From Gemmatimonadota bacterium (GTDB lineage Bacteria; Latescibacterota; UBA2968): DNA of 64,000 bases. The stretch is from assembly GCA_026705765.1 (NCBI GenBank), contig JAPPAB010000099.1, forward strand, positions 14,833-78,832. Reading direction: 5' to 3'. Numbering within the stretch: position 1 is the first letter of the stretch; every line of letters starts with the position of its first letter. Below are positions 328 to 21,581 of the stretch, piece after piece. The notes below the pieces were generated by a model, which was not told the origin of the DNA, did not search any database, and saw only the letters and a program-made list of their open reading frames with translations. The translations under genes were made by a program, and so were the position numbers.

Positions 328-2121
328 TTGAAAACGTTTATGTTCTCTTTCTCTCCCAACGATTTTCTCGCCTGTAATGGCACGCGCATTGGTGCTGAGC
401 ATCTGCATGGGCGCATGCAAGTCCTGCGCGATGAGATCGAACCCGTCCTGACGAAACAGCATCCAGACCTCACGGCTGTTATTTCTCCTGTTTACGCGAC
501 GACGAATTTTCGCTCCAATCCCAATCGGCCGCGGGATCACGCGTGTCTCTATTTTGTCGATCGCAAGCTGAAGAAGAGCGCGTTTCCCCGGTTGCCCCAA
601 CTGGGTATTTATTTGCATCACAATGCCCTCGCTATTGGCTTTTACTCTGGGTGGTGGACATTTGAGGCGATGCAAAAGGCGATTGCGGATCGCAAGAAGT
701 TTCGCGGTCTGGTGCCGCGCAAGGGGTATCGCTGTTTGGCAGGTGATATTATTGTGGCGTCACCGGGTCGTTCGGTGCCGTGGTCGCCATCCAGACTTGA
801 CGGGGTTGATCGCTCGCTGTTTGTCGGGTCGATTCTCACGCCGGATGAAGCTGCGGTGCCGACGCTTGTCGATGATATTGAGATGGTGCTGGAGGATCTC
901 TACGCGCTGTATGCGGTGTTTACAAGGGTGAGATACCAGACTTCTAAAAGCAGTGTCGTGTATCATGTGCCCGATCCCGCAGAAGTCGGTGTTGTGCGGG
1001 ATGCGCTTGTGCCTGTGGAGGCCGAGTTGTTGTGCGATCTTTACCGGTTTACGGTGCTGAAGAATTTCCAGGTTGAGGCGGGGATGTTGTTCAATCTCTA
1101 TTTGTGTTTGAAGACCAAACCTTTTCTCATTCTGGCGGGGATATCCGGGACGGGGAAGAGTACTGTGATTCGGCTTTTGGCCGAGGCGGTCAATGGTCTG
1201 GATGAGGGGCGGGCGAGAGGGTATCGCCTTATTCCCGTGCGTCCGGATTGGAACGATGTGCGCGATTTGCTCGGGTTTGAAAATTTGCTTACGGGGGTGT
1301 TTCGTCCAGGGGCGTTGCTTCAGGCGATGTGCGAGGCACAGGACGATCCGAATCGTCCATATTTTGTGTGTTTGGACGAGATGAATCTCGCCCGGGTGGA
1401 GCACTATTTTGCCGATTTTTTGAGTGTTATGGAGACGGCGAGGCGCTCGCCCGATGGGGCGTGGACGACAGATCCGATTGAATTGGCGCAGGGTGGGGAT
1501 GTGGTGTCAACGGATGAGATGGGAGATGTGCCTTCGCGTTTGCCCATTCCGCCCAATTTGTTTGTTGCAGGTACGGTTAATATGGATGAGACGACGTATG
1601 CGTTTAGTCCCAAGGTGCTGGACAGGGCAAATACGGTTGCTTTTGATCGCGTTGATCTGGGGTTGTCGGATTATGATCCCGAGGTGCAGATTGATTCGAC
1701 GGCTCTGCGCGCCCTCGGTTCAGCACTTATTGACCGTCCCTATCGGCAGTTGGAAGATGTTCGCCACCGCGATGAGGTTGTTGCGTGGAATGAGCCGTTG
1801 GAGGAGATTAACGCGGTGCTCGCGAAGGAGGATTTGCATTTTGGCTATCGCATTCGCGATGAGGTTCTCATCTATATGGCGTATGCGCTGGATTTGATTG
1901 AGGGGCTGCCTTCAAATGCGCCGGCGTTTACGCCCCGAGATGCTTTTGATTATCAGATTTTACAAAAAATTCTCCCACGCCTGTCCGGCGCAGGAGATGA
2001 ACTTGCCGGTCTGCTGGACGCGCTGATCGCTTTTTGCGATGCCACCTATCCCCGCTCAACACACAAACTCCAGCGCGTGAAACGCCGTCTTGAACTCACG
2101 GGGTTTGTCAGTTTTTGGTAG
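328..2121 (+). CDS. McrB-family AAA+ ATPase/GTPase domain protein with an uncharacterised ~250-aa N-terminal domain; no McrC-like partner adjacent
   Basis: Walker A LILAGISGTGKST. Walker B in VCLDEMNLARVEHYF, resembling McrB DEINRA. Downstream NxxD-like VNMDETT/DRANT. TTG start at 328 or ATG at 340. Upstream sequence is AT-rich and non-coding. Confidence 0.6.
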   Translation: MKTFMFSFSPNDFLACNGTRIGAEHLHGRMQVLRDEIEPVLTKQHPDLTAVISPVYATTNFRSNPNRPRDHACLYFVDRKLKKSAFPRLPQLGIYLHHNALAIGFYSGWWTFEAMQKAIADRKKFRGLVPRKGYRCLAGDIIVASPGRSVPWSPSRLDGVDRSLFVGSILTPDEAAVPTLVDDIEMVLEDLYALYAVFTRVRYQTSKSSVVYHVPDPAEVGVVRDALVPVEAELLCDLYRFTVLKNFQVEAGMLFNLYLCLKTKPFLILAGISGTGKSTVIRLLAEAVNGLDEGRARGYRLIPVRPDWNDVRDLLGFENLLTGVFRPGALLQAMCEAQDDPNRPYFVCLDEMNLARVEHYFADFLSVMETARRSPDGAWTTDPIELAQGGDVVSTDEMGDVPSRLPIPPNLFVAGTVNMDETTYAFSPKVLDRANTVAFDRVDLGLSDYDPEVQIDSTALRALGSALIDRPYRQLEDVRHRDEVVAWNEPLEEINAVLAKEDLHFGYRIRDEVLIYMAYALDLIEGLPSNAPAFTPRDAFDYQILQKILPRLSGAGDELAGLLDALIAFCDATYPRSTHKLQRVKRRLELTGFVSFW

Positions 2122-2124
2122 GTT

Positions 2125-2445
2125 CTATTGTATGACAGACCTCGGTGTTGCATTGAGGCGCGTTACGACGATGCGCTCTCGGTCGATCAATGTACCTACC
2201 TGGTCGCTCAATGTGTCGGTCCAATACGGGTCTTCATAGACGGCTTTGTAGAGTTGCTCTCTTTGTTCTTCGCTCTCAAATCGGCGAATCCACACGTAGA
2301 GGTCTTCTTCTTCTTCGCCGACAAAGCTGCCTATGACGACCATGCCTTTTGATATTTGAAATGGGATGATTTCACTTTCCATAAATGCAACCCATTCTTC
2401 GCGTTTTCCCGGTTGGGTGCGATATTGACGTAGTTCAAAGAACAT
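2125..2445 (-). CDS. NIPSNAP family protein
   Basis: 106 aa with the ELRQYRTQPGKREEWVAFMES dimeric alpha/beta-barrel signature typical of NIPSNAP. Confidence 0.55.
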   Translation of the reverse strand: MFFELRQYRTQPGKREEWVAFMESEIIPFQISKGMVVIGSFVGEEEEDLYVWIRRFESEEQREQLYKAVYEDPYWTDTLSDQVGTLIDRERIVVTRLNATPRSVIQ

Positions 2446-2489: not shown

Positions 2490-2822
2490 TTATTCCAAAG
2501 TAAAAAAAGATGTGGTTTCGCTTTGCTCAAATCTCAAAATTGCATCGTGATGTGTGCGAAGAAGAGATAAAATTGTGTTCGTTGAACAATTGCCTAAGCG
2601 AAGCCAAATGACTTTGGGCGGATGACCATATAGAAAGCTTTTTTGGTGAAAGTCCGAGTCTTTGGAAACAATGACATAGCCGTTTTGGGCTGCATAATCC
2701 CAAATATCCGAGTCATCCGCTTCTTCCATGCCTATATCTCGGATGTGTGAAGAATTCGGATACAGGTCCTTCAAGTCTGTAACCAATCTGTAAGAGAGGT
2801 TTTGATCGAAGAGAAATCTCAT
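2490..2822 (-). CDS. DUF5615 family PIN-like protein, putative toxin of a DUF433/DUF5615 pair
   Basis: 110 aa with RFLFDQNLSYRLV...VSKDSDF. Overlaps the upstream DUF433 gene by 4 nt (ATGA). Confidence 0.55.
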   Translation of the reverse strand: MRFLFDQNLSYRLVTDLKDLYPNSSHIRDIGMEEADDSDIWDYAAQNGYVIVSKDSDFHQKSFLYGHPPKVIWLRLGNCSTNTILSLLRTHHDAILRFEQSETTSFFTLE

Positions 2823-3046
2823 GTCGAAGAAACAGACATAAGTCTGCGCTCTCGGTCTGCAGCAAATGCCAGGCAGGCGCGGATGTCTTCTCGTGTAAGT
2901 TCGGGAAAATCGCTCAATATTTCTTCAACAGACATGTCTGAGGCAAGATAGTCAAGTACGTCATAAACGGTGATCCGCATGCCGCGAATACACGGTTTTC
3001 CACTGCGTTTGCCCGGTTCAATGGTGATGATGTCTTGATAGTCCAT
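2819..3046 (-). CDS. DUF433 family protein, putative antitoxin
   Basis: 75 aa with IEPGKRSGKPCIRGMRITVYDVLDYL, characteristic of DUF433. Translationally coupled to the DUF5615 gene. Confidence 0.6.
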   Translation of the reverse strand: MDYQDIITIEPGKRSGKPCIRGMRITVYDVLDYLASDMSVEEILSDFPELTREDIRACLAFAADRERRLMSVSST

Positions 3047-7392: not shown

Positions 7393-9024
7393 ATGTCGGG
7401 TATAGATGTGGGTCAAATTGGATGGAAGGCTGAGAGTAAGACGGGTGTTGTGGCTGCAGGTGGTGCAGGTGCTGTGGCTGCGGGGATTGAGATTCTGGAT
7501 AGGGGTGGCAATGCGGCCGATGCAGCCGCTGCGACTATTTTTGCGCTGAATGTTACGGATCACGGTGCGTGTTCGATTGGCGGGGAGGTTCCGCTTCTTA
7601 TTTTTGATGCTGGGACTTCGGAGGTGAAGGCTTTGAGCGGACAGGGGCGGGCACCGCGTTCTCAGGAGGCGATTGACTGGTATATGGAGCATGGTATTCC
7701 GGGGGATGGCGATATGAAGATGGCACCCGTGCCTTCGGTTGTGGATTTGTGTATTACGACGCTTAAGCGATACGGTACGATGTCGTTTGAAGAAATTATC
7801 GCTCCTGTGCTCGCTTTGCTCGATGCGGGGGAGGATGACTGGCATCCCAATCTTGCGAGGACGTTGCGAAAACTCGTTGAGGAGGAGCATCTTACGTCGG
7901 GGAGTCGGGAGGAGAAGTTGCAAGCTGCCGCGGATCGCTTTTACGGGCGGAATAAGTATCGCAATGATATTGCGGAGGAGCTTGAGGCTTTTTATGTCGC
8001 AAAGGGGGGGTTTTTGCGTCGGGAAGATCTGGCGACGCATGTTACGACGATTGAAGATCCGGTTACGGTTTCTTATCGGGGATATACGGTTTGCAAGTGC
8101 GGGCCGTGGACGCAGGGTCCGTATTTGTGTCAGGCACTGCGCTTGCTCGAGAAGTTCGATGTCAAGGCTATGGGCCATCTTTCGGCTGATTATGTTCACG
8201 TTGTTACCGAGGCGATCAAGCTGGCGATGGCGGATCGCGATGCGTATTATGCCGATCCCGATTTTTCAGGTGTGCCTCTGGGGGGATTGCTCTCTGATGC
8301 TTACACGGATTTGCGCGTGCCGCTTATCGATATGCAAGCGGCTTCTCTGGAGGCGCGTCCGGGGGATCCTTATCTGATGCAGCCAGTTGTGGATGGTGGT
8401 GTGTTCCGTCCGGGTACGGGGGGGACGACGACTTGTGTGGTGGCGGACTGCTGGGGCAATGTTGTCGCGGCGACACCGAGTGCCAATGTTCACCGGCCTA
8501 CGATTGATGGGGGGAGTACGGGGGTTACTTATGGGAATCGCCTGCGGAGTCTCAATACGACGGCGGGTCATCCGAATTGTATCCAGCCGGGGAAGCGTCC
8601 GCGCATTACGCTGACGCCTACGCTGGTGTTGAAAGATGGGCGACCGATTCTGGGTATTAGTGTTGCGGGTGGCGATTTGCAGGATCAGACGACGTTGAAT
8701 TTGTTGCTGGATTTTGTGGAGTTTGGGATTATGCCGGAGGAGGCTGTTACTGCGCCCCGTTTTGCGACGGCGCATCACAACGATTCTTTTGATCCCAATC
8801 CCATCCGCGAGCAGACGTTCAAACAGGCCGGGTCGCTGACGCTGAATGATGCGATAGATCGGGATGTGCAGGATGATCTCGCCAGACGAGGACATCAGGT
8901 CGAGGCGAAAGCATCTAATATTGCGACGCCTGTTATGGTTTATGTGGATCGAGAAGAGGGCAGGTATTACGCGGCAGGCGATCCCAAAGCGGGGCGTCAC
9001 GCCGCGGGGGTGGAAGATGGGTGA
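7393..9024 (+). CDS. ggt: Gamma-glutamyltransferase
   Basis: GGT fold; putative Thr nucleophile in GGTTTCVVAD; 543 aa. Confidence 0.75.
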   Translation: MSGIDVGQIGWKAESKTGVVAAGGAGAVAAGIEILDRGGNAADAAAATIFALNVTDHGACSIGGEVPLLIFDAGTSEVKALSGQGRAPRSQEAIDWYMEHGIPGDGDMKMAPVPSVVDLCITTLKRYGTMSFEEIIAPVLALLDAGEDDWHPNLARTLRKLVEEEHLTSGSREEKLQAAADRFYGRNKYRNDIAEELEAFYVAKGGFLRREDLATHVTTIEDPVTVSYRGYTVCKCGPWTQGPYLCQALRLLEKFDVKAMGHLSADYVHVVTEAIKLAMADRDAYYADPDFSGVPLGGLLSDAYTDLRVPLIDMQAASLEARPGDPYLMQPVVDGGVFRPGTGGTTTCVVADCWGNVVAATPSANVHRPTIDGGSTGVTYGNRLRSLNTTAGHPNCIQPGKRPRITLTPTLVLKDGRPILGISVAGGDLQDQTTLNLLLDFVEFGIMPEEAVTAPRFATAHHNDSFDPNPIREQTFKQAGSLTLNDAIDRDVQDDLARRGHQVEAKASNIATPVMVYVDREEGRYYAAGDPKAGRHAAGVEDG

Positions 9025-12832: not shown

Positions 12833-13786
12833 ATGTCCAAATTTATCTGTTTTCTGTTCGTTGTTTTGGTGTTTCAGTCTGTTGATGCGCAGCAACCACA
12901 ACAGCCACAACAAAATCGACGTCAGCAACGCACAGTTACCGTGGAGCAAATTATGCAACAGGTACCCGAAGGTGTGACTTTTATTCCGGATATTGCGTAC
13001 CGCGAGGGCAACGAGGCATGGAAACTTGATCTCGCTATGCCCACAGAGCGCGGTGAGACGTCCCGTCCAGCCCTTGTGTTTATTCACGGAGGGGGATGGA
13101 GAGGTGGGGATAAACGCCGGGGAGGTTTTCTTCGTCCTACTATCAGCTATGCAGCAAAGGGCTATGTTTGTGTTACGGTGAACTATCGGATGCTCGATGA
13201 GGCACCTATTACGGCGTGTGTTGAGGATGTGAAGAATGCGGTGCGCTGGTTGCGCGCCCATGCCGAGGAGTACAATATTGATCCGGAACGGATTGGCGCG
13301 AGTGGAAATTCCGCGGGGGCGCATCTGGCTGTTATGCTGGGTGTTTGTCCGCCTTCAGCCGGTCTGGAAGGGGATGGTCCCTATCAGGAGTATTCCAGTA
13401 TGGTTCAGGCTGTTGTGGCGAGTGCTACGCCTACCGACTTTCTGTCTGCTATGAGTGACCGCCAGCGCAATCAGCAGCGAGCACGTCCGCCTCGCAAAAA
13501 CGAGCTTAGACTGGAGTCTGAAGAGGTTCGCGCTAAGACTTCTCCTGTGACTTATGCTTCGGCCAATGCACCGCCTATTTTGCTCGTTCACGCAATATCT
13601 GATCGCACGGTTGGCGTCTATCATTCGGACAAGTTGGTCAGGGCACTGCGAGAAGCCGGTGCCAAGAATGTCAGTTATATTCTTCTGGGCGATGAGAGTG
13701 GACACGGTGCTTTTCAGCGCAATATCGCGTTTACCGAGCCTGCCCGTGAAGCTTTTTTTAATCGCGTGTTAAAGCCGGGAAATTGA
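12833..13786 (+). CDS. Secreted alpha/beta-hydrolase carbohydrate esterase (BD-FAE-like)
   Basis: Signal peptide, HGGGW oxyanion motif, GNSAGAH nucleophile elbow. Confidence 0.7.
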   Translation: MSKFICFLFVVLVFQSVDAQQPQQPQQNRRQQRTVTVEQIMQQVPEGVTFIPDIAYREGNEAWKLDLAMPTERGETSRPALVFIHGGGWRGGDKRRGGFLRPTISYAAKGYVCVTVNYRMLDEAPITACVEDVKNAVRWLRAHAEEYNIDPERIGASGNSAGAHLAVMLGVCPPSAGLEGDGPYQEYSSMVQAVVASATPTDFLSAMSDRQRNQQRARPPRKNELRLESEEVRAKTSPVTYASANAPPILLVHAISDRTVGVYHSDKLVRALREAGAKNVSYILLGDESGHGAFQRNIAFTEPAREAFFNRVLKPGN

Positions 13787-13787
13787 G

Positions 13788-15104
13788 ATGAAGTCTTTGT
13801 CTGAACTTGAAGAGCGGATGGCTGAGGCGCAGCCGGGTGATGTGATTGGGCTGGCCGACGGCATGTATGATGGTGAGAGGTGCAGGCTCGCGGCAAGGGG
13901 GACCGCAGATCAGCCGATTGTTATTCGGGCGGAGGGTATGGGAAAGGCGGTTATAAAGGCGCCGTTGTTGCTGGTGGGAGATTATATCAGTCTTGTGGGG
14001 TTGCACTTTGTGGAAAAGGGGAGTGTGGAGATTCGGGGGCGGGGTTGTCGCATAAGTCGCTGTGTGATGACGGATGTGCAGGTTGGCAAGTGGATACGGG
14101 TGAGGGCAGAGAGTCGGGAAGTTGAGATTGATCGCTGCCGGTTTGAGAATAAGACCAATAATCTCGAGGAGACGCGCGGCTGCCAGTTGATGCAGATTTA
14201 CGTTCGCAATCAGGGCGAGAGGCACCTTGTTCACCACAATTATTTTGTCGATGTTCCGGATGGTAAGGAGAGCAATGGGTACGAGACGCTTCAGCTTATT
14301 ACGGAGGGGAATCCGTACGATCCAGAGCCGGGTGATTGTGAGACGGTTGTTGAGTACAATCTTTTTGTGCGTTGTAGTGGGGAGGCGGAGATTATTTCTG
14401 TGAAGTCCAATGGCAATATTCTCCGCAGGAATACGTTTCGCGATTGCCGGGGCGCGCTGGTGCTTCGGCATGGGGATGGCAATGTGGTGTCTGAGAATTT
14501 CTTTTTTGGCGAGGGCGAACGCCGGGCTGGCGGTGTGCGCTTGCAGGGGACGGATCAGGTTGTTGTGAATAATTTGTTCCATTCGCTCAATGCGTTTGGC
14601 GTGGGGATGATGGATGGGGCATCGGATGATCTCTATGTGCGGGTGGAGCGCGCGCTGATTGCGTTTAATACGTTTGTGGGGTGTAGTCCGGCGATGGATG
14701 TGGGGCTAAATCACAGCAGGTATCCCAATGGTACAGTGCCTAAAGATTGTGTGGTTGCGAATAATGCTTTTGTGAGATCCGATGGGACTGTGCGGCTGGT
14801 GCAGGACGATGAGCCAGTGAATTGGCGATGGGAGGGGAATGTGACAGATGGGGATTTGGGTATGCCCGATCGGGATGGGATAAAAACTGGGCGGGTCGAT
14901 GTGGATTATCTGCCCAATGGGGTTGTTGCACCGGGAGAGTCCAGTGGTTTGATTGGCAATGCCGAGGGGCATTATCCAGAGATAACGACGGATATTTTGG
15001 GGCATTCACGGGGCGAACAAAAGACGATTGGTTGCGTTGAGTTCCCGACGGGAACGGAGGACGGCGGTCCCTTAACTGCGGCAGATGTGGGACCAAGGTG
15101 GTAG
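13788..15104 (+). CDS. Right-handed parallel beta-helix polysaccharide lyase (PL6/chondroitinase-B-like)
   Basis: Repeated beta-helix rungs with NNxF/NNLFH motifs; start codon abuts the esterase stop. Confidence 0.5.
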   Translation: MKSLSELEERMAEAQPGDVIGLADGMYDGERCRLAARGTADQPIVIRAEGMGKAVIKAPLLLVGDYISLVGLHFVEKGSVEIRGRGCRISRCVMTDVQVGKWIRVRAESREVEIDRCRFENKTNNLEETRGCQLMQIYVRNQGERHLVHHNYFVDVPDGKESNGYETLQLITEGNPYDPEPGDCETVVEYNLFVRCSGEAEIISVKSNGNILRRNTFRDCRGALVLRHGDGNVVSENFFFGEGERRAGGVRLQGTDQVVVNNLFHSLNAFGVGMMDGASDDLYVRVERALIAFNTFVGCSPAMDVGLNHSRYPNGTVPKDCVVANNAFVRSDGTVRLVQDDEPVNWRWEGNVTDGDLGMPDRDGIKTGRVDVDYLPNGVVAPGESSGLIGNAEGHYPEITTDILGHSRGEQKTIGCVEFPTGTEDGGPLTAADVGPRW

Positions 15105-15106
15105 CA

Positions 15107-15439
15107 TCAATCAATAGAAACAACGAGGTTCAAGTTTTCTTTTCTTAGCGTGTCCTGCAAGGCAAGCTGCACCCAGAAGCTTTCTGGCTCGCCGAGTTGT
15201 CTGGCAATTTTGGCTGCCCTGCTGGGGCTTGGGATTCTTCTTTCTTTTTCTATATCACAAAGGCTTTGAGGGGAGATTCCCAAAAAATCAGCAAACGCTC
15301 GCTGGCTTTTTTCTTCTCCTGTTCGATAGCTGGCCAAGGCATTTCCAAATGTGAGACACCCAAAGTCTCTCTCCAGTTCAGAAGTTCCATATTGTTCTTT
15401 AGTAATCATGTTTATTGATCTCCTTAATTCCCAAATCAT
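15107..15439 (-). CDS. XRE-family helix-turn-helix transcriptional regulator
   Basis: HTH_3-like segment QRAFADFLGISPQSLCDIEKERRIPS. Sits at the edge of the low-GC islet, divergent from repeat copy A. Confidence 0.65.
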   Translation of the reverse strand: MIWELRRSINMITKEQYGTSELERDFGCLTFGNALASYRTGEEKSQRAFADFLGISPQSLCDIEKERRIPSPSRAAKIARQLGEPESFWVQLALQDTLRKENLNLVVSID

Positions 15440-15472
15440 ACGTCAAAATGACGTATGCAGCAAGTTCAACCT

Positions 15473-15527
15473 GCCTTGATATGTTTTGAAATGCGATTGA
15501 CAATATCGCGTTGTTGCTACATTTTTT
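15473..15527 (+). promoter_or_regulatory. Repeat copy A of a promoter/operator-like element (TTGACA 15497-15502, TACATT 15518-15523)
   Basis: gccttgatatgttttgaaatgcgATTGACAAtatcgcgttgttgcTACATT. Nearly identical to copy D and related to copies B and C. Confidence 0.5.
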
Positions 15528-15734
15528 ATCGGATAGTATGGATATAGTGAGAGATAGCGCAATACGATGATGCCCTGCATATCGCTTTGGCTTCGGTTGC
15601 AGAAGTCGATGTGTTGGTTAGCTGGAACTTCAAGCACATCGTACACTTTGACAAAATACGTCTATTCACCGCTGTGAACATTGAACTTGGCTATAAACCA
15701 TTACAGATATACTCTCCGCGTGAGGTGACTAATT

Positions 15735-15911
15735 ATGGAGACGAAAAAGACGTTTGATGCGGTTAAGATTGTGCGTCGGATTCGAGACGCGCACTATGAG
15801 CAACTCAAGGATAGAACGGTAAAAGAGCAATTGGCATTTTACCAAAGCAAGTCTCAGGCATTGCGTAACGACTTAAAAAAGAAATTGCAAGAGCATTATG
15901 ACGACGAATGA
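15735..15911 (+). CDS. Small hypothetical protein (58 aa), paralogue of the 62-aa ORF at 16943
   Basis: SD GAGGTGA 8 nt upstream of the ATG. Shares a VRxxRDxHxxQ core with the 62-aa protein. Below the 60-aa ORF-track cutoff. Confidence 0.5.
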   Translation: METKKTFDAVKIVRRIRDAHYEQLKDRTVKEQLAFYQSKSQALRNDLKKKLQEHYDDE

Positions 15912-16042
15912 TCCCATTGTTTCGGAAGTCCGAAAAGAGATGTGGCATAAATTTGGTCAAAAGGATTAGGCATAATTCAATATAGAAAAGGAGAGGAATC
16001 TCGATCTACTTTGATACCCATATTGTGGTGTGGTTATATGCT

Positions 16043-16090
16043 GGTCAAACCGAAATGCGGTTGACAAAATCGTGTCGTTACTACACTTTT
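16043..16090 (+). promoter_or_regulatory. Repeat copy B of the promoter/operator-like element (TTGACA 16061-16066, TACACT 16082-16087)
   Basis: gaaatgcgGTTGACAAaatcgtgtcgttacTACACTtttt upstream of the UPF0175 gene. Confidence 0.45.
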
Positions 16091-16132
16091 TCTTTCTAAG
16101 CGTAATTCAAATATGGATGAAACGGGGCGCGC

Positions 16133-16393
16133 ATGTTAAAAATTACATTTGAATGTCCAGATGATATTCTGCAGATCCTCAGTGAAACGCCTGAACAATT
16201 CGCCGAACAAGGCCGCATGCTCATCGCCGTCAAACTGTTTGAACTCGGACGTTTGTCATCGGGTCAGGCGGCTCGGTTTGCGGGCATGGAGCACGTTGTA
16301 TTTTTAGATGCCTTAAAATCCTACCAGGTATCTCCTCTCAATCTGACTCCAGAAGAATTGGCAAAGGATATTTCCAATGCTAGGAATCTGTAA
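16133..16393 (+). CDS. UPF0175 family protein (putative antitoxin)
   Basis: 86 aa with GRLSSGQAARFAGMEHVVFLDALKSY, matching the UPF0175 core. Classic partner of DUF3368/PIN-like proteins. Confidence 0.6.
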   Translation: MLKITFECPDDILQILSETPEQFAEQGRMLIAVKLFELGRLSSGQAARFAGMEHVVFLDALKSYQVSPLNLTPEELAKDISNARNL

Positions 16394-16467
16394 TGTCGAT
16401 GCGTTCCACAACCCTATTTCTACTGAATTGACCAACTGGCCTTGTTACATTGGATACGCCTCTTATT

Positions 16468-16956
16468 ATGAAACCAAAGGTATATATCGAAACCACCGTT
16501 ATTAGCTACTTGACAGCCCAACCTTCTCGCGATGTCGTAATTGCGGGACATCAACAGAGTACTCGAGATTGGTGGAAGAACGCAGCTGATCGGTTCGAAC
16601 TCGTAGCTTCACAACTGGTCCTTACCGAAGCCAGTGCTGGCGATCCGGAAGCTGCTCGTGCCCGCCTCGCAGCACTCAACTCACTGACGCTTCTCGACGC
16701 CACAGAGGAAGCCCTTGAATTAGCACAACAATTGGTCAACGCTGGCGTTGTGCCTGCAAAGGCAGCAGAAGACGCCGCTCATATTGCCATTGCAGTTGTC
16801 AACGGTATCGAATATTTGGTAACTTGGAATTATCGGCATATCGCCAATGCGACGATCCGATCACAAATCGAAACTGTATGTCGGAATGCGGGATTTGAAC
16901 CCGCGATCATCTGCACACCTGACGAACTCATGGAGCGTGATCATGACGACGAATGA
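16468..16956 (+). CDS. PIN-like (DUF3368/VapC-like) putative toxin
   Basis: N-terminal VYIETTVISYL, internal LTEASAGD, AAHIAIA, and C-terminal LVTWNYRHIAN resembling the VapC LxTRNxxDF motif. ATG at 16468 preferred over TTG at 16450. Confidence 0.5.
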   Translation: MKPKVYIETTVISYLTAQPSRDVVIAGHQQSTRDWWKNAADRFELVASQLVLTEASAGDPEAARARLAALNSLTLLDATEEALELAQQLVNAGVVPAKAAEDAAHIAIAVVNGIEYLVTWNYRHIANATIRSQIETVCRNAGFEPAIICTPDELMERDHDDE

Positions 16957-17131
16957 TCCCATTGTTTCGGAAGTCCGAGCAGTACGCGACAAACACGCTG
17001 CTCAATTCGGCTACGATCTCAAAGAGATATTCCGCGATATTAAGAAAAAACAAAAATCATCTGGTCGTAAATACGTGCAGTATCCTTCCCGTGCGGCTGT
17101 TGTAACAACTGTCACAACTTCAGACCAGTAG
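16943..17131 (+). CDS. Small hypothetical protein (62 aa), translationally coupled to the PIN-like gene
   Basis: ATGACGACGAATGA start/stop overlap with the upstream gene. Its first 12 codons are duplicated at 15899. Confidence 0.5.
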   Translation: MTTNDPIVSEVRAVRDKHAAQFGYDLKEIFRDIKKKQKSSGRKYVQYPSRAAVVTTVTTSDQ

Positions 17132-17147
17132 CTATAAAGGCAATATC

Positions 17148-17711
17148 ATGACAACGGTTTTTATTGGCGGTTCTCGTAGCATCACACGCTTGAACGACAC
17201 CATCAGGTCCACAGCGGATAACATCACGCGTCAGCATTTTGATATCGTTATCGGAGATGCAAATGGTGCTGATAAGGCTGTACAGAGCTATTTAGCAGAA
17301 AAAGCATATCGGAATGTTATCGTCTATTGTATGGATGATCACTGTCGGAACAACGTGGGAAGTTGGCCAGTAGAACAGATATATGCAGATAATCAGGTAA
17401 GGGACTTTGCATACTACACAACTAAGGATGCAAAGATGGCTCAAGTAGCGTCCTATGGCTTCATGATTTGGGATGGAAAGAGTAAGGGAACTTTGAACAA
17501 TATTCTCAACTTATTGCAGCTACAGAAGAATATCCTGGTTTATTTTTCGCCCGATAAGTCTTGTTATAAGCTCAAATCACTCAACGATCTTGATACACTC
17601 TTAGAAAAATGTAGCAGCGATATGATAGAAAAGTTCGAAAAGGAGTTCTCACTACTGGTCCCAGCGAGTTTAGAAGGTTCGAATTTTGAGATCGCATTTC
17701 CTGAAAGATAG
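17148..17711 (+). CDS. Stand-alone SLOG-domain protein (DprA/Smf- and LOG-like Rossmann fold)
   Basis: FIGGSRSI and VIGDANGADKAV resemble the DprA GSR...sGlA.GiD motif. MIWDGKSKGTLNNI resembles the LOG PGGxGTxxE motif. Local GC is low. Confidence 0.5.
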   Translation: MTTVFIGGSRSITRLNDTIRSTADNITRQHFDIVIGDANGADKAVQSYLAEKAYRNVIVYCMDDHCRNNVGSWPVEQIYADNQVRDFAYYTTKDAKMAQVASYGFMIWDGKSKGTLNNILNLLQLQKNILVYFSPDKSCYKLKSLNDLDTLLEKCSSDMIEKFEKEFSLLVPASLEGSNFEIAFPER

Positions 17712-17746
17712 GAACATGCCTTAATATGTTTTGAGATGTGGTTGAC

Positions 17747-17790
17747 AAAAGCGTACGTGTTAAACATTGACAAGTACGCTTTTTTGTTTT
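17747..17790 (+). terminator. Rho-independent terminator-like hairpin embedded in repeat copy C (TTGACA 17742-17747)
   Basis: AAAAGCGTAC-(17 nt loop containing TTGACAA)-GTACGCTTTT followed by TTGTTTTC. Lies 36 nt after the SLOG gene stop. Confidence 0.5.
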
Positions 17791-18112
17791 CTTTGACTTT
17801 CACAAGGTTATTGTGAAGTGGTCTATTTGCTTGGTTTTCCGATGAAGCAGTGCACAGCGCGTGAGTCCGTCTCGCAGCGGATGTTTTTATGGCATTTCAA
17901 CTGTGCAGGCCATTGTATAGCGCATTACCACAGAAACGATTTGCGCTGTGCCAGCCCCTCGGCGTTTGAGAGCGGCATTTTTTGCCTACTTTTTTTTGCT
18001 GTTGAAAAAAAGTAGGTCGCCGAAGGCATAAAAAGGAAAATATTTAAAAAGCTTTATACGTCGTTACACCACCACAAATGAATTATGCATATCCCTGAAA
18101 TAAGTATCCTCA

Positions 18113-18165
18113 AAAACCGAATTGCGGTTGACAATCTCGCGTTGTTGCTACATTGTTTATTTTTG
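18113..18165 (+). promoter_or_regulatory. Repeat copy D of the promoter/operator-like element (TTGACA 18127-18132, TACATT 18149-18154)
   Basis: gcgGTTGACAATctcgcgttgttgcTACATT. A 27-nt block is almost identical to copy A. Lies about 45 nt upstream of the enolase-superfamily start. Confidence 0.5.
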
Positions 18166-18197
18166 AGGAGTATTCCAATACGAGAAAAGGAAAATAT

Positions 18198-19406
18198 ATG
18201 AAAATTAAATCCGTCGAAGTCGTTCGCGTTGAACGGCCAGATACAAGCCAGGCCTCAACGGGGTCCGGTACGACGCTCGCTGCTTCAACAGGTGCAGCCC
18301 CGAGGACAAAGGGGTATCGAAAGGCGTGGCCCACGCAGATAGAGGTGGCAAATCCGATGTCCAGGTTCCCGCGGTTTAAGGCGCGTCGGCAGCTTTACGG
18401 TGCCAGACAGTGGCCCAGGTTCTCGGTTAAGGTGACCGCTGAAGATGGGACCTGGGGCCTCGGCACGTCGGCGGGACGCCCGGTTGCTATGGTGGTGGAA
18501 GATGCTTTCGCGCATATATTGGAAGGGGAGAGTTGCCTGGCTATTGAAAAGCTGTGGGATATGATGTTTCGCGTGTCCAAATCTTTTGGGACTGTGGGGA
18601 TTGCCTCGTTGGCGATTAGTGCTGTGGATCTGGCGCTGTGGGATCTGGCGGGGAAATTGCAGGGCAAGCCCGTTTATGAACTTCTGGGCGGTCCGGCGCG
18701 CGATCGTTTGTTTGTGTACGCGACGGGTGATGATGTGGATTGGTACAAGGAGTTGGGGTTTCGGGCGTTTAAGTTGCCCTGTCAATACGGTCCGGTTGAT
18801 GGGTTGTGGGGATTGGGAGAGAACGAGAGGCGAATAGCCGAGGTCCGCGAGTTGATCGGCGATGATTGCGATCTCATGCTGGATTGTTATATGGCTTTGG
18901 ATGTGGAATATACCGCGCGTTTGGCCAATCGCCTGCGTCCTTATAATCTGCGGTGGATGGAAGAGTGCCTGATTCCCGAGGATGTTGGGGGGCATATTGA
19001 ACTCAAGAAACGCCTGCCGTGGTTGACGCTTGCCAGTGGCGAGCATTTTTACACGCCGTATCCCTACCAGTTGATGATCGAAAATCGGTGTCTCGATATT
19101 CTCCAGCCCGATATTCAGTGGGTGGGGGGTTTGACTGCTTGTGTCAAAATTTGTAATATGGCTGCCGCTGCGGGGCTGGAGGTTTGTCTGCACGGCGGGG
19201 GACGCGATGCGTACGGTCAGCATTTGAGCTGGGCAATGCCCAATACCCCCTGGTGTGAGTATTTTATCGGTTCTGATCCGGGGGTACCACTTGAAGAAGT
19301 GGCGCAACCCGGCGCGTGCGTGCCGCACAATAGCTATCTGGCGTTTGCGCCGACAGGTCCGGGTTTTGATCTGGGGATTGAAGAGGATTGGTTGGTGCCG
19401 TTTTAA
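18198..19406 (+). CDS. Enolase-superfamily enzyme (mandelate racemase/muconate lactonizing enzyme family)
   Basis: MR/MLE N-terminal capping domain and TIM-barrel ligand region; start MKIKSVEV with SD GAAAAGGAAA. Confidence 0.65.
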
Positions 19407-19423
19407 TTTTAAAAGAGGAAAAA

Positions 19424-20257
19424 ATGGATAAGACAATTATTTCTGTGGCGGTTGTGGGGTCGGGTCCTACGAAGGATATGAATCCGGCTGTGCCTTATAC
19501 GCCAAAGGAGATTGCAGAAGCAGCTATTGAGTGCCATAAGGCGGGTGCGGCTATTACGCATATCCATGTGCGCGATCCCGAGACGGGTATTGTGTGTTCG
19601 CGGATTGAGCTTTTCAAAGAAGTGGTGGACCGGATTCGGCAAGCTTGTGATATTGCGATTAATTTGACGACGAGTGGGGGAAATATTAAAGGGGAAAATA
19701 TTATTGAGGAGCGGCTTGAGCCGGTTGCGCTGAAGCCCGAGATTTGCTCTCTGGATATCGGTTCGGTAAATTTTGGCACTCGGGTGTTTATGAATCCACC
19801 CGAATGGGGTGTTGCCGCGGCAAAGCGCATGCGCGAGCATCGCGTTAAGCCGGAGATTGAGGTTTTCGATGCCGGTCATATTCGCCAGGCGCGGTATATG
19901 ATTGCGGAGGGGTTGTTCGAAGATCCCCCGTTTGTCCAGTTGTGTATGGGCCCCGGATGGGGTATTGAAGCTACGCCTGAGAACATCGTTTTTATGAAAA
20001 ATCTCTTGCCGCCCGATGTGATCTGGTCCGCTCTGGGTGTGGGAAAAGCACAGTTGCCGATGATTACTATGGCTTTTCTCATGGGGGGGCATATACGGGT
20101 GGGTTTTGAAGATAATATTTATCTTCGGAGAGGTGTTTTGCTCAAGAGCAATGCACAGATGGTCGATCTCGCGGCGAGTCTTGTGGAGAAACTTCAGGGC
20201 GAGATTGCCACGCCAGATGATGCCCGGGAGATGCTGGGGCTTACGTATCCGGGGTGA
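19424..20257 (+). CDS. BKACE family (3-keto-5-aminohexanoate cleavage enzyme-like, DUF849)
   Basis: [45 protein letters not shown], typical of the BKACE TIM barrel. Confidence 0.65.
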
Positions 20258-20368
20258 GCAGGTTTCGCGGTGCGTTGCGTTTTTATCACTGCAATGGCGA
20301 TGGCACGCGCAGCGAGCGGATTTCTATGGCTATGGAAACGCGCGGTCCTCTGGTGGATGACCTGTGAA

Positions 20369-20998
20369 TTATTTGGGGAGGTCCGCGAGATGGGCAATAT
20401 CGTTGAGTGCCATGAAGGTGGGTTCGCCTCCGGGGTCGAGTTGAAGGTGATGAATGGAGGCCGTGTGGCACGCGAATTGGGGTTTGTGTTCGTCTTCGGG
20501 CGTGTATCCCATGATCGCTTGCAGGCAGGCGACAATGGGGCGAACGTGTGTGATGCACGCAATTTGCTGATCGGGCGCTTCGTCGACGAGTTGGCTCACG
20601 GTGTTGGCAACGCGGGTGTGCAGGTCGGCATAGGTTTCGCTGCCTGGAACGCGCGCCTCTTCGAGGGATTGTCCGCCCAAAAAGCCGGGATAATATTTTC
20701 GAACTTCTTCGCGGGTGAGTGTGGCGAGGTCGCCGCTTTCGAGTTCGCGCAGGTCATTTTCTACTTTGGGCGCGATATGGAGTATATCGCCTATCCATTC
20801 GGCTGTTTGATGGGCGCATTTTTGGGGGCTGGTGTAGAGGCCGCGAATGTCAAAGTCCCTTCTGAGGCGTTCGCCAGTGAGCAGGGCTTGTTGTTTGCCC
20901 CGGTGCGAGAGGGGCAGGTCGGCCCACCAGCCGTAGTGGTTTTCGCCATCGCGTTCTCTGGCCTGTCCAGGGCAGATTAGTATGAGGTCGGTTGGCAT
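20369..20998 (-). CDS. Histidine phosphatase (PGM-like) family protein with an atypical first catalytic motif
   Basis: LILICPGQ occupies the position of the canonical LxRHGE motif (RH replaced by CP). The rest of the fold is retained. Confidence 0.5.
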   Translation of the reverse strand: MPTDLILICPGQARERDGENHYGWWADLPLSHRGKQQALLTGERLRRDFDIRGLYTSPQKCAHQTAEWIGDILHIAPKVENDLRELESGDLATLTREEVRKYYPGFLGGQSLEEARVPGSETYADLHTRVANTVSQLVDEAPDQQIACITHVRPIVACLQAIMGYTPEDEHKPQFACHTASIHHLQLDPGGEPTFMALNDIAHLADLPK

Positions 20999-21026
20999 GT
21001 GTGTTCCTTATTTTTTGGGGGTATGT

Positions 21027-21581
21027 ATGAAGTCAATGGTTGCGGTGTTTTTTTTCACAATGGTCGCGTTTTCAGGTCGGGCAGATGCACAGTTGGATGT
21101 CAAGATCGGCGGGGGTGCGCTTCTCGATCCCACGCGCGGTGGCGGACATCTATCCATAGAGGTTCCCATTGGAGATCTGTATCCGACGTATTTGGCACCT
21201 TTTGTTGAGTTTTATCGGAAGGACGGTATTTCAGAAATTCCTGCGGGTGTTAGTCTGGTTTACAAAGCTCCTTTGTCCGATCAATACGGCACGGTGTTTT
21301 TTGGGGTTGCCGGCGGCGTGTTGCACGCTCGGGGTTTTCCCGTGATTGTCGATGTACTGATTGACGGAACGGTGCTTTACCTCGTAGATACAACGACCGG
21401 AGACTTTGTAAGAGAAACGTCAACCGAGGCGTTGATTGCCGTAGCAGGCGGCATGCGGTTTGATGTTTCCGAGGGCATAGGTGCATTTGTGCAGGGGCGC
21501 TGGTTTCGCGCTTTTGCGTCTGGTTCAACAAATAATTTTGGCATCCACGCAGGGCTGATGTTCTCTTTGGGTGAAAGATAG
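21027..21581 (+). CDS. Putative outer-membrane beta-barrel protein
   Basis: Signal peptide MKSMVAVFFFTMVAFSGRADA, alternating hydrophobic beta strands, C-terminal aromatic-rich end. Confidence 0.4.
   Translation: MKSMVAVFFFTMVAFSGRADAQLDVKIGGGALLDPTRGGGHLSIEVPIGDLYPTYLAPFVEFYRKDGISEIPAGVSLVYKAPLSDQYGTVFFGVAGGVLHARGFPVIVDVLIDGTVLYLVDTTTGDFVRETSTEALIAVAGGMRFDVSEGIGAFVQGRWFRAFASGSTNNFGIHAGLMFSLGER

Follow-up and report, generated by a model that had tools for sequence, protein, structure and literature searches.

In a 64,000-nucleotide stretch of DNA (hereafter, the window) from the Latescibacterota assembly GCA_026705765.1 (labelled Gemmatimonadota bacterium; contig JAPPAB010000099.1, positions 14,833 to 78,832), we analyzed a gene for an McrB-family AAA+ protein that has no McrC gene beside it. 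We consider it probable, by a modest measure, that this gene encodes the GTPase or motor subunit of a split, vertically inherited, functional McrBC-type (Type IV restriction-like) complex in a Latescibacterota lineage. In McrBC, the textbook example of Type IV restriction, the two subunits are treated as an operon. By analogy with the McrBC systems of Escherichia coli and Thermococcus gammatolerans, the C-terminal AAA+ module would bind GTP and form a ring. Into this ring would plug an McrC-like protein (DUF2357 N-domain followed by a PD-(D/E)xK nuclease) whose gene is elsewhere on the chromosome, and this partner would stimulate GTP hydrolysis and supply the cleavage activity. The N-terminal YktB/DUF1054-like domain would occupy the position of the target-sensing domain. 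An earlier reading of the window (hereafter, the original prediction) had described an orphan McrB-family protein with a novel N-terminal domain; its central observation was confirmed, and its interpretation was supported in part.

An McrC-like gene family unlinked to the McrB-like gene

With an McrC profile built from the DUF2357+PDDEXK_7 genes beside the nearest AAA+ relatives, neither the 64-kb window nor the 10 kb that precede it gave an McrC match; contig L001, which carries an identical McrB-like gene plus 10 kb of upstream sequence, represents the latter. Across the family, McrC was adjacent to the McrB-like gene in 0 of 32 loci and absent within 10 kb in 30 of them, the exceptions being L033 and L034. 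As a control, an McrB open reading frame (ORF) was located directly upstream in 22 of 28 generic DUF2357 loci (each preceded by 4.5 kb of sequence or more). For both P0030 and P0031, the nearest non-family AAA+ relatives, the next gene downstream encodes DUF2357+PDDEXK_7, in restriction-modification (R-M) or Dnd islands. In L033, an McrC-like gene (553 aa; DUF2357, 3.8e-15; PDDEXK_7, 2e-24) is found 6.9 kb downstream of the McrB-like gene, and L034 has a truncated McrC-like copy about 3.4 kb downstream; opposite-strand metabolic genes separate the two genes in both loci. Such proximity is a feature of one sub-lineage.

The L033 McrC-like protein, used as a query, recovered 29 clusters at 43–73% identity (its own cluster apart), followed by an abrupt fall to 27%. 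All six of the Latescibacterota chromosomes with the McrB-like gene that were checked also carry one orthologous McrC-like gene, and two of the six fall in the window's own sub-lineage (90–92% N-terminal-domain identity). On record ctg150447c (4,699,647 bp), P0136 (McrC-like) and P0002 (McrB-like) are about 715 kb apart around the circle, and the McrC-like P0214 was matched to OZ253501 (6,181,206 bp; window's sub-lineage), at about 2.04 Mb from the McrB-like gene. The McrC-like proteins P0236, P0242, P0257, and P0129 were matched, through contigs of equal length, to the McrB-carrying chromosomes OX638317, OZ251458, OY282377, and OZ252228. The lack of an McrC partner asserted in the original prediction therefore holds for adjacent genes, the window, and the 10 kb upstream, but not for the six related chromosomes. 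Its alternative of a distal partner is now favoured because of this unlinked gene, even though the gene was not seen in the 74 kb available from the window genome.

The McrC-like gene has conserved surroundings of its own that are syntenic between genomes: upstream are genes for a HAD-family hydrolase, an M3 peptidase, and a channel of the MscS type, and downstream is a phosphomannose isomerase (PMI) gene; no McrB was found beside it in L046, L047, or L049. Its nuclease motif (RPD...FDAKYRRE, of the PD-(D/E)xK type) is invariant, the ratio of nonsynonymous to synonymous substitution rates (dN/dS) is 0.17–0.27, and the proteins match no PADLOC model. Also retained is the DUF2357 domain, the part that in characterised systems enters the McrB ring and switches on the hydrolysis of GTP (PMC11090510). 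Directly downstream of the McrC-like gene, all five loci with downstream sequence have an ORF of 87 aa (Table 1) whose conservation exceeds that of the McrC-like gene (64–88% identity between loci; dN/dS 0.07–0.18). The 87-aa protein has no match in Pfam, PDB, or PADLOC and was not found near any other locus examined, and we regard it as a candidate third component.

Further evidence connects the families. Pairwise identities of the McrB-like and McrC-like families across the six genomes correlate closely (r = 0.995), showing that both are vertically inherited. In addition, the top non-family match of the McrB-like protein is P0030, which belongs to operon L040, and the McrC of the same operon scores 139.6 bits against the L033 McrC-like protein, compared to 107 bits for the best non-family match among those listed. 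By sequence comparison, the closest outside relatives of both families are thus the two subunits of one canonical operon. We infer, by analogy with characterised McrBC, that the McrB-like and McrC-like proteins would pair physically and functionally and that the motor would use GTP.

The same data bear on a rather improbable explanation, in which the protein is a solitary McrB-like NTPase that needs no McrC and, under the direction of its DUF1054-like domain, acts as a nucleotide-dependent switch or remodeller, the McrC-like family being functionally unrelated to it. The distance from any McrC in nearly all loci, the immediate neighbours that vary by sub-lineage, and the existence of a McrC-independent McrB-family protein (PcdA, see below) all speak for such an enzyme. 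However, the same genomes conserve an McrC-like protein that has kept its McrB-binding DUF2357 domain and has no other McrB beside it, one shared operon provides the closest outgroup of both families, and only a few kilobases separate the two genes in L033 and L034.

Integrity of the McrB-like gene and its motor module

The ORF extends without interruption over 328..2121 (+), where TTG 328 is a mechanical ORF start. We prefer ATG 340 because the N-termini of orthologues align at that methionine (MFxFSPNDF). An identical 593-aa product is encoded on seven public contigs, and reading frames of 592–594 aa are intact in 10 of 10 orthologues translated in full (the window gene included), as are the frames of 23 aligned family members. 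Compared to eight orthologues, dN/dS of the gene is 0.08–0.14, with both domains alike, showing that it is under strong purifying selection. Loss of the adjacent McrC and a position beside variable toxin-antitoxin (TA) and insertion sequence (IS) cassettes would suit a decaying, non-functional remnant of an McrBC operon. Nevertheless, this explanation has a negligible probability and is effectively refuted, and a pseudogene is ruled out, because the frames are intact, dN/dS is about 0.1, and the motifs are invariant.

Table 1 Coordinates of the McrB-like gene, its domains and motifs, and associated genes. Positions refer to the window unless a locus is named.
Feature	Coordinates	Strand	Remarks
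McrB-like gene	340..2121	+	593 aa plus stop; ATG 340 likely true start
N-terminal domain, YktB/DUF1054-like alpha/beta fold	340..942	+	residues 1 to ~201
Linker, poorly conserved	943..1005	+	residues ~202–222; pLDDT <50 at 203–223; variable alignment columns
McrB-type AAA+ GTPase module with C-terminal helical lid	1006..2118	+	residues ~223–593
Walker A, GISGTGKS	1138..1161	+	residues 267–274; invariant in 23 sequences
Walker B, LDEMN	1372..1386	+	residues 345–349; invariant in 23 sequences
McrB signature region, TVNMDETT...KVLDRA	1573..1629	+	residues 412–430; N414-M-D416-E, R429; NxD variant; invariant in 23 sequences
NIPSNAP gene	2125–2445	-	downstream of the McrB-like gene
DUF5615 (PIN-like)/DUF433 TA pair	2490–3046	-	downstream of the McrB-like gene
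87-aa ORF, L046	11693–11956		candidate third component
87-aa ORF, L047	11742–12005		candidate third component
87-aa ORF, L049	9044–9304		candidate third component
87-aa ORF, L050	532–792		candidate third component
87-aa ORF, L033	20375–20635		candidate third component
RR-GGDEF gene, L008	6981–7892		upstream of, and on the same strand as, the McrB-like gene
RR-GGDEF gene, L011	7088–7999		upstream of, and on the same strand as, the McrB-like gene
RR-GGDEF gene, L033	9031–9984		upstream of, and on the same strand as, the McrB-like gene
DUF2231 gene, L012	4539–4994		overlaps McrB-like start by 4 nt

Judged by its motifs, signature, and lid, the protein is an intact McrB-family AAA+ GTPase (COG1401), in agreement with the original prediction. 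The Pfam AAA_5 match spans residues 267–379, the best PDB sequence match is E. coli McrB, and McrB is also the best AAA+ fold match of a full-length AlphaFold2 (AF2) model; this model is of moderate quality (predicted local distance difference test [pLDDT] 71.8, predicted template-modelling score [pTM] 0.38) and served solely to rank AAA+ folds. Thousands of database proteins, many of them named McrB or containing DUF3578, match the motor part alone at about 40–46% identity. Helices predicted at residues 453–587 in the AF2 model indicate that the lid is retained, and its motifs HFGYRIRD and LQKILPR, together with a C-terminal GFVSFW, are invariant in 23 family members and common to named McrB proteins. 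By its N-M-D-E signature (residues 414–417), the protein belongs to the NxD branch of McrB GTPases, whose signature is shortened to NxD and in most cases continues with E or D (Bell et al. 2024, PMC11090510). The PADLOC model PDC-M26A matches the AAA+ part (1.7e-49), and no further PDC-M26 component was found among the window genes. This partner test is uninformative because no PADLOC model matches the McrC-like proteins, the 87-aa proteins, or even a canonical neighbouring McrC.

An N-terminal domain with a YktB/DUF1054-like fold

The N-terminal domain was described as novel and unrecognisable in the original prediction, a view that did not survive structural comparison. An AF2 model built from an alignment of 18 N-terminal segments is confident (pLDDT 82.9, pTM 0.83) and matches the YktB fold (PDB 2a8e, 3mqz) across the full domain. 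At the sequence level, the window protein's domain has no Pfam match, the DUF1054 score being below the gathering threshold, and weak DUF1054/DUF2461 matches were found in 4 of 18 orthologues (best E = 0.0022). A profile of the domain aligned to YktB in register in a PDB search (E = 0.26). Sequence evidence for the assignment is thus weak but consistent. Invariant residues of the domain include D8, F9, C12, N13, R63-P-R-D-H67, C69, P83-R-x-P-Q-L-G89, H93, W106, and W148. The standard McrB DNA-binding domain (ADAM/DUF3578, MrcB_N) was rejected as a candidate, based on a negative hhalign comparison with the ADAM/DUF3578 domains of the nearest McrB relatives (probability 0.09). The domain is therefore neither a standard McrB reader nor a new fold, and the pair of features that would have made this an ordinary McrBC locus, a standard N-terminal domain and an McrC just upstream, was found neither in the protein nor on L001. 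The literature that mentions DUF1054 or YktB assigns no function to either.

Combinations of this domain with an McrB motor are rare. Only 28 database clusters match the McrB-like protein over its full length, and a profile of the N-terminal domain compared to 1.84 billion representative proteins gave ten matches, of which three (P0126, P0127, and P0128) are outside the family. P0127 has a DUF1054-like domain, distantly related to that of the window, directly ahead of an E. coli-type (NxxD) McrB motor, and a PF10117 McrC gene adjoins it inside a Type I R-M island. In P0128, a DUF1054-like domain likewise precedes an McrB motor; the start of an unannotated 461-aa gene overlaps its stop, and an adjoining gene encodes an N6-adenine methyltransferase with a weak MmeI-type Pfam match. 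These two arrangements indicate that the YktB/DUF1054-like module is a rare but recurrent partner of McrB motors. Because another domain precedes it in both P0127 and P0128, the module may be an adaptor rather than the primary reader. In P0126 (403 aa, metagenomic), YktB/DUF1054-like residues 6–207 are fused to an unannotated C-terminal region of about 200 aa with no AAA+ module.

Core-genome inheritance: defence or domestication

When one genome per species was scanned using the N-terminal-domain alignment, 26 loci emerged, 25 of them labelled Candidatus Latescibacterota or Latescibacteria and one labelled Gemmatimonas; divergent members could be missed because the scan used two exact peptide patterns. 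The gene is single-copy per genome, many of the loci are on complete chromosomes of 4.7–8.1 Mb, and N-terminal-domain identity ranges from 41 to 94%. The family is thus nearly confined to Candidatus Latescibacterota and vertically inherited.

Such a distribution raises a second explanation, to which we assign a minor but appreciable probability: McrB, with or without McrC, was domesticated, i.e., co-opted from restriction into a core cellular task, for example signalling or the upkeep of chromosomes or nucleic acids, much as PcdA moved to a role in cell division. In one form of this idea, which we likewise consider possible but unlikely, a complete McrBC-type machine (NxD GTPase carrying a YktB/DUF1054-like sensor domain, McrC-like nuclease, and 87-aa protein, both enzymes being active) was fixed in the core genome of a Latescibacterota lineage, its operon dissolved, and it now has a housekeeping or self-directed nucleic-acid function instead of a part in mobile anti-phage defence. 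Domestication would account for single-copy, vertical inheritance among Latescibacterota that have diverged deeply (N-terminal-domain identity as low as 41%), for the housekeeping, syntenic surroundings of both loci, for unlinked genes that are atypical of mobile defence modules, and for strong purifying selection on both genes. It is also consistent with a response-regulator diguanylate cyclase (RR-GGDEF) gene directly upstream on the same strand in seven loci and with the PcdA precedent (PMC10602043). However, all catalytic motifs and the lid are kept, unlike in PcdA, whose motor is degenerate and which lacks a nuclease; the nuclease conserved here has an intact active site, and no non-defence partner is kept across all sub-lineages. 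Both loci also border variable TA, IS, and defence cassettes, a setting more typical of immune loci: DUF5615/DUF433 or DUF3368/UPF0175 pairs, GNAT acetyltransferase, and TnpB on the McrB-like side, and CBASS, HigB, and Mrr_cat genes on the McrC-like side in L047.

Several observations weigh against a split functional complex. Subunits of defence systems are almost always co-operonic, and core-genome, vertical, single-copy inheritance with a dissolved operon argues for domestication. The close correlation of identities is no proof of interaction because any two vertically inherited genes would give it. Co-occurrence of the two genes was scored on six chromosomes, the McrC-like gene was not seen in the window or its 10 kb upstream, and the McrC-like protein could have its true partner in another McrB paralogue of those genomes. 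RR-GGDEF or DUF2231 genes appear to share a transcript with the McrB-like gene in some sub-lineages. In addition, no NxD-type McrB has been biochemically characterised (Bell et al. 2024, PMC11090510). We still favour the split complex because both activities look intact and both loci abut variable TA, IS, or defence cassettes, and, as to its role, we lean slightly towards core-genome defence and away from a domesticated housekeeping function.

Comparison with known McrB-family systems

Compared to canonical McrBC (E. coli K-12, T. gammatolerans), the Latescibacterota proteins share an McrB-type AAA+ module with Walker A and B motifs, signature, and lid, an accessory N-terminal domain ahead of the motor, and, in related genomes, a protein with DUF2357 and PD-(D/E)xK domains. 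They differ in gene arrangement (6.9 kb to about 2 Mb apart rather than one operon), in signature (NxD rather than NxxD), and in N-terminal domain (YktB/DUF1054-like rather than ADAM/DUF3578, YTH, or EVE). Canonical systems are island-borne and patchy in distribution, whereas inheritance here is vertical and in the core genome, and a conserved additional gene, of 87 aa, comes after the McrC-like gene.

The closest sequence relatives of both subunits are methyltransferase-associated McrBC systems of the NxD branch (e.g., the P0030 operon, L040), which have the NMDE(T/S)T signature in common with the present protein, as well as a C-terminal tail, GF(T/V)SFW. Operons of this branch often contain two-component genes (Bell et al. 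2024, PMC11090510), a feature resembled here by RR-GGDEF genes upstream in some sub-lineages. In contrast to these systems, no methyltransferase or McrC is adjacent in Latescibacterota, the N-terminal domain is of another type, and the subunits are unlinked.

PcdA of Staphylococcus aureus is an McrB-family protein co-opted to cell-division plane selection, with tandem EVE domains, a degraded Walker A motif, and loss of the Walker B glutamate and of the C-terminal helical bundle (PMC10602043). Like the present protein, it is a lineage-restricted, vertically inherited McrB homologue without an adjacent McrC, but the Latescibacterota protein has intact motifs and lid, its N-terminal domain is of a type other than EVE, and related genomes have kept an McrC-like nuclease. 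Proteins of the YktB type (YktB/DUF1054, UPF0637, PDB 2a8e and 3mqz; DUF2461) are stand-alone and about 200 aa long, whereas the domain is fused here to an McrB motor. A CoCoNuT system was ruled out, given the compact alpha/beta N-terminal domain, the absence of a coiled coil, and the absence of an adjacent HEPN or nuclease gene. Literature searches on PDC-M26, McrB with DUF2461, and Latescibacter with McrB returned nothing.

A split McrBC pair would be reported as two 'orphans' or missed altogether because censuses and defence-finder tools rely on adjacency. If the split complex is real, defence-type complexes can outlive the dissolution of their operon, and the lineage offers a natural case for asking whether such a complex provides immunity or has been domesticated. 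It would also give the YktB/DUF1054 fold its first functional context, as an McrB-associated and presumably ligand- or nucleic-acid-sensing module, and would make available a tractable member of the NxD branch. Were the complex instead a housekeeping machine of the core genome, it would represent a second route of McrB domestication, mechanistically distinct from that of PcdA.

Genomic surroundings

Downstream of the McrB-like gene, the NIPSNAP gene and TA pair on the opposite strand (Table 1) are as the original prediction had listed them. Most of the 52 genes in the window census are metabolic or housekeeping (e.g., sulfatases, FloA/NfeD, M17 peptidase, GGT, and QueA), and no defence island was found among them; one resolvase and one UPF0175 protein suggest another small mobile or TA element further along. 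Gene order in the window lineage is CMD-family (carboxymuconolactone decarboxylase-like) gene, two or three small membrane paralogues, non-coding gap, McrB-like gene, variable slot, NIPSNAP, FG-GAP-repeat gene, QueA, and short-chain dehydrogenase (SDR) gene. The slot between the McrB-like and NIPSNAP genes differs across this lineage (L013–L027): the window has the DUF5615/DUF433 TA pair, and elsewhere the slot is empty or contains a DUF3368/UPF0175 pair, in some cases together with a GNAT acetyltransferase gene. A TnpB (OrfB_IS605/Cas12f-like TNB) gene is located beside the McrB-like locus in L014 and L025.

Upstream of the McrB-like gene, L001 has a non-coding gap of about 840 bp, in which an Rfam search returned nothing but a far sub-threshold match. 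Beyond the gap, on the opposite strand, are three small membrane paralogues, a CMD-family gene, and a DegT-family gene. The paralogues are in tandem (L001 7977–9159) and encode hydrophobic proteins of about 108–116 aa with no Pfam family, and two or three copies are kept upstream, beside the CMD-family gene, throughout the window lineage.

Other sub-lineages differ in the genes that precede the McrB-like gene. The RR-GGDEF gene occurs in L008, L011, and L033 (Table 1), as well as in L031, L032, L035, and L036; its spacing from the McrB-like gene is 1 nt to about 140 nt, or the two overlap briefly, and ahead of it most of these loci carry a 390–470-aa gene without a family, in one or two copies. 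This arrangement suggests possible co-transcription with cyclic di-GMP signalling. In the two most divergent members (L012 and L037), a DUF2231 membrane-protein gene overlaps the McrB-like start by 4 nt, and in a third locus it is a few genes upstream. No adjacent partner is kept in all sub-lineages: NIPSNAP, CMD, RR-GGDEF, and DUF2231 are each confined to one sub-lineage.

In L033 (an 8.08-Mb chromosome), identical DDE transposase (IS) genes at 7605–8930 and 15900–17225 flank the McrB-like region, with one copy between the McrB-like and McrC-like genes. In L047 (the 6.18-Mb chromosome), the McrC-like gene is followed at a distance of 1.5–9 kb by a defence and TA island (13059–21039), whose genes include AAA_14/DUF4143, Uma2, a CBASS-like trio (SMODS, bacterial HORMA, and AAA), a helix-turn-helix (HTH) plus M78 peptidase gene, HigB, and Mrr_cat. 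The corresponding region of L046 has DUF2283, HerA-like (DUF87 plus HAS-barrel), and UPF0150 genes.

Two non-coding segments precede the McrB-like gene in the window. A block at 26–88 (CAATATAATTCATTTTTTTTTGAAATCAAGTTAAACTCATAGAGGTGATGAATG) is nearly invariant in 10 of 10 window-lineage loci, at a distance from the McrB-like ATG that varies from about 90 to about 290 nt. Within it, a sigma-70-like site on the minus strand (54→27) is directed towards the genes for the small membrane proteins, and the block may be a shared or divergent promoter or regulatory element. A leader segment of about 200 bp (window ~100–320) is absent as an indel from L013, L015, L016, L019, and L021, and is present in the window and L023 and partially in L024.

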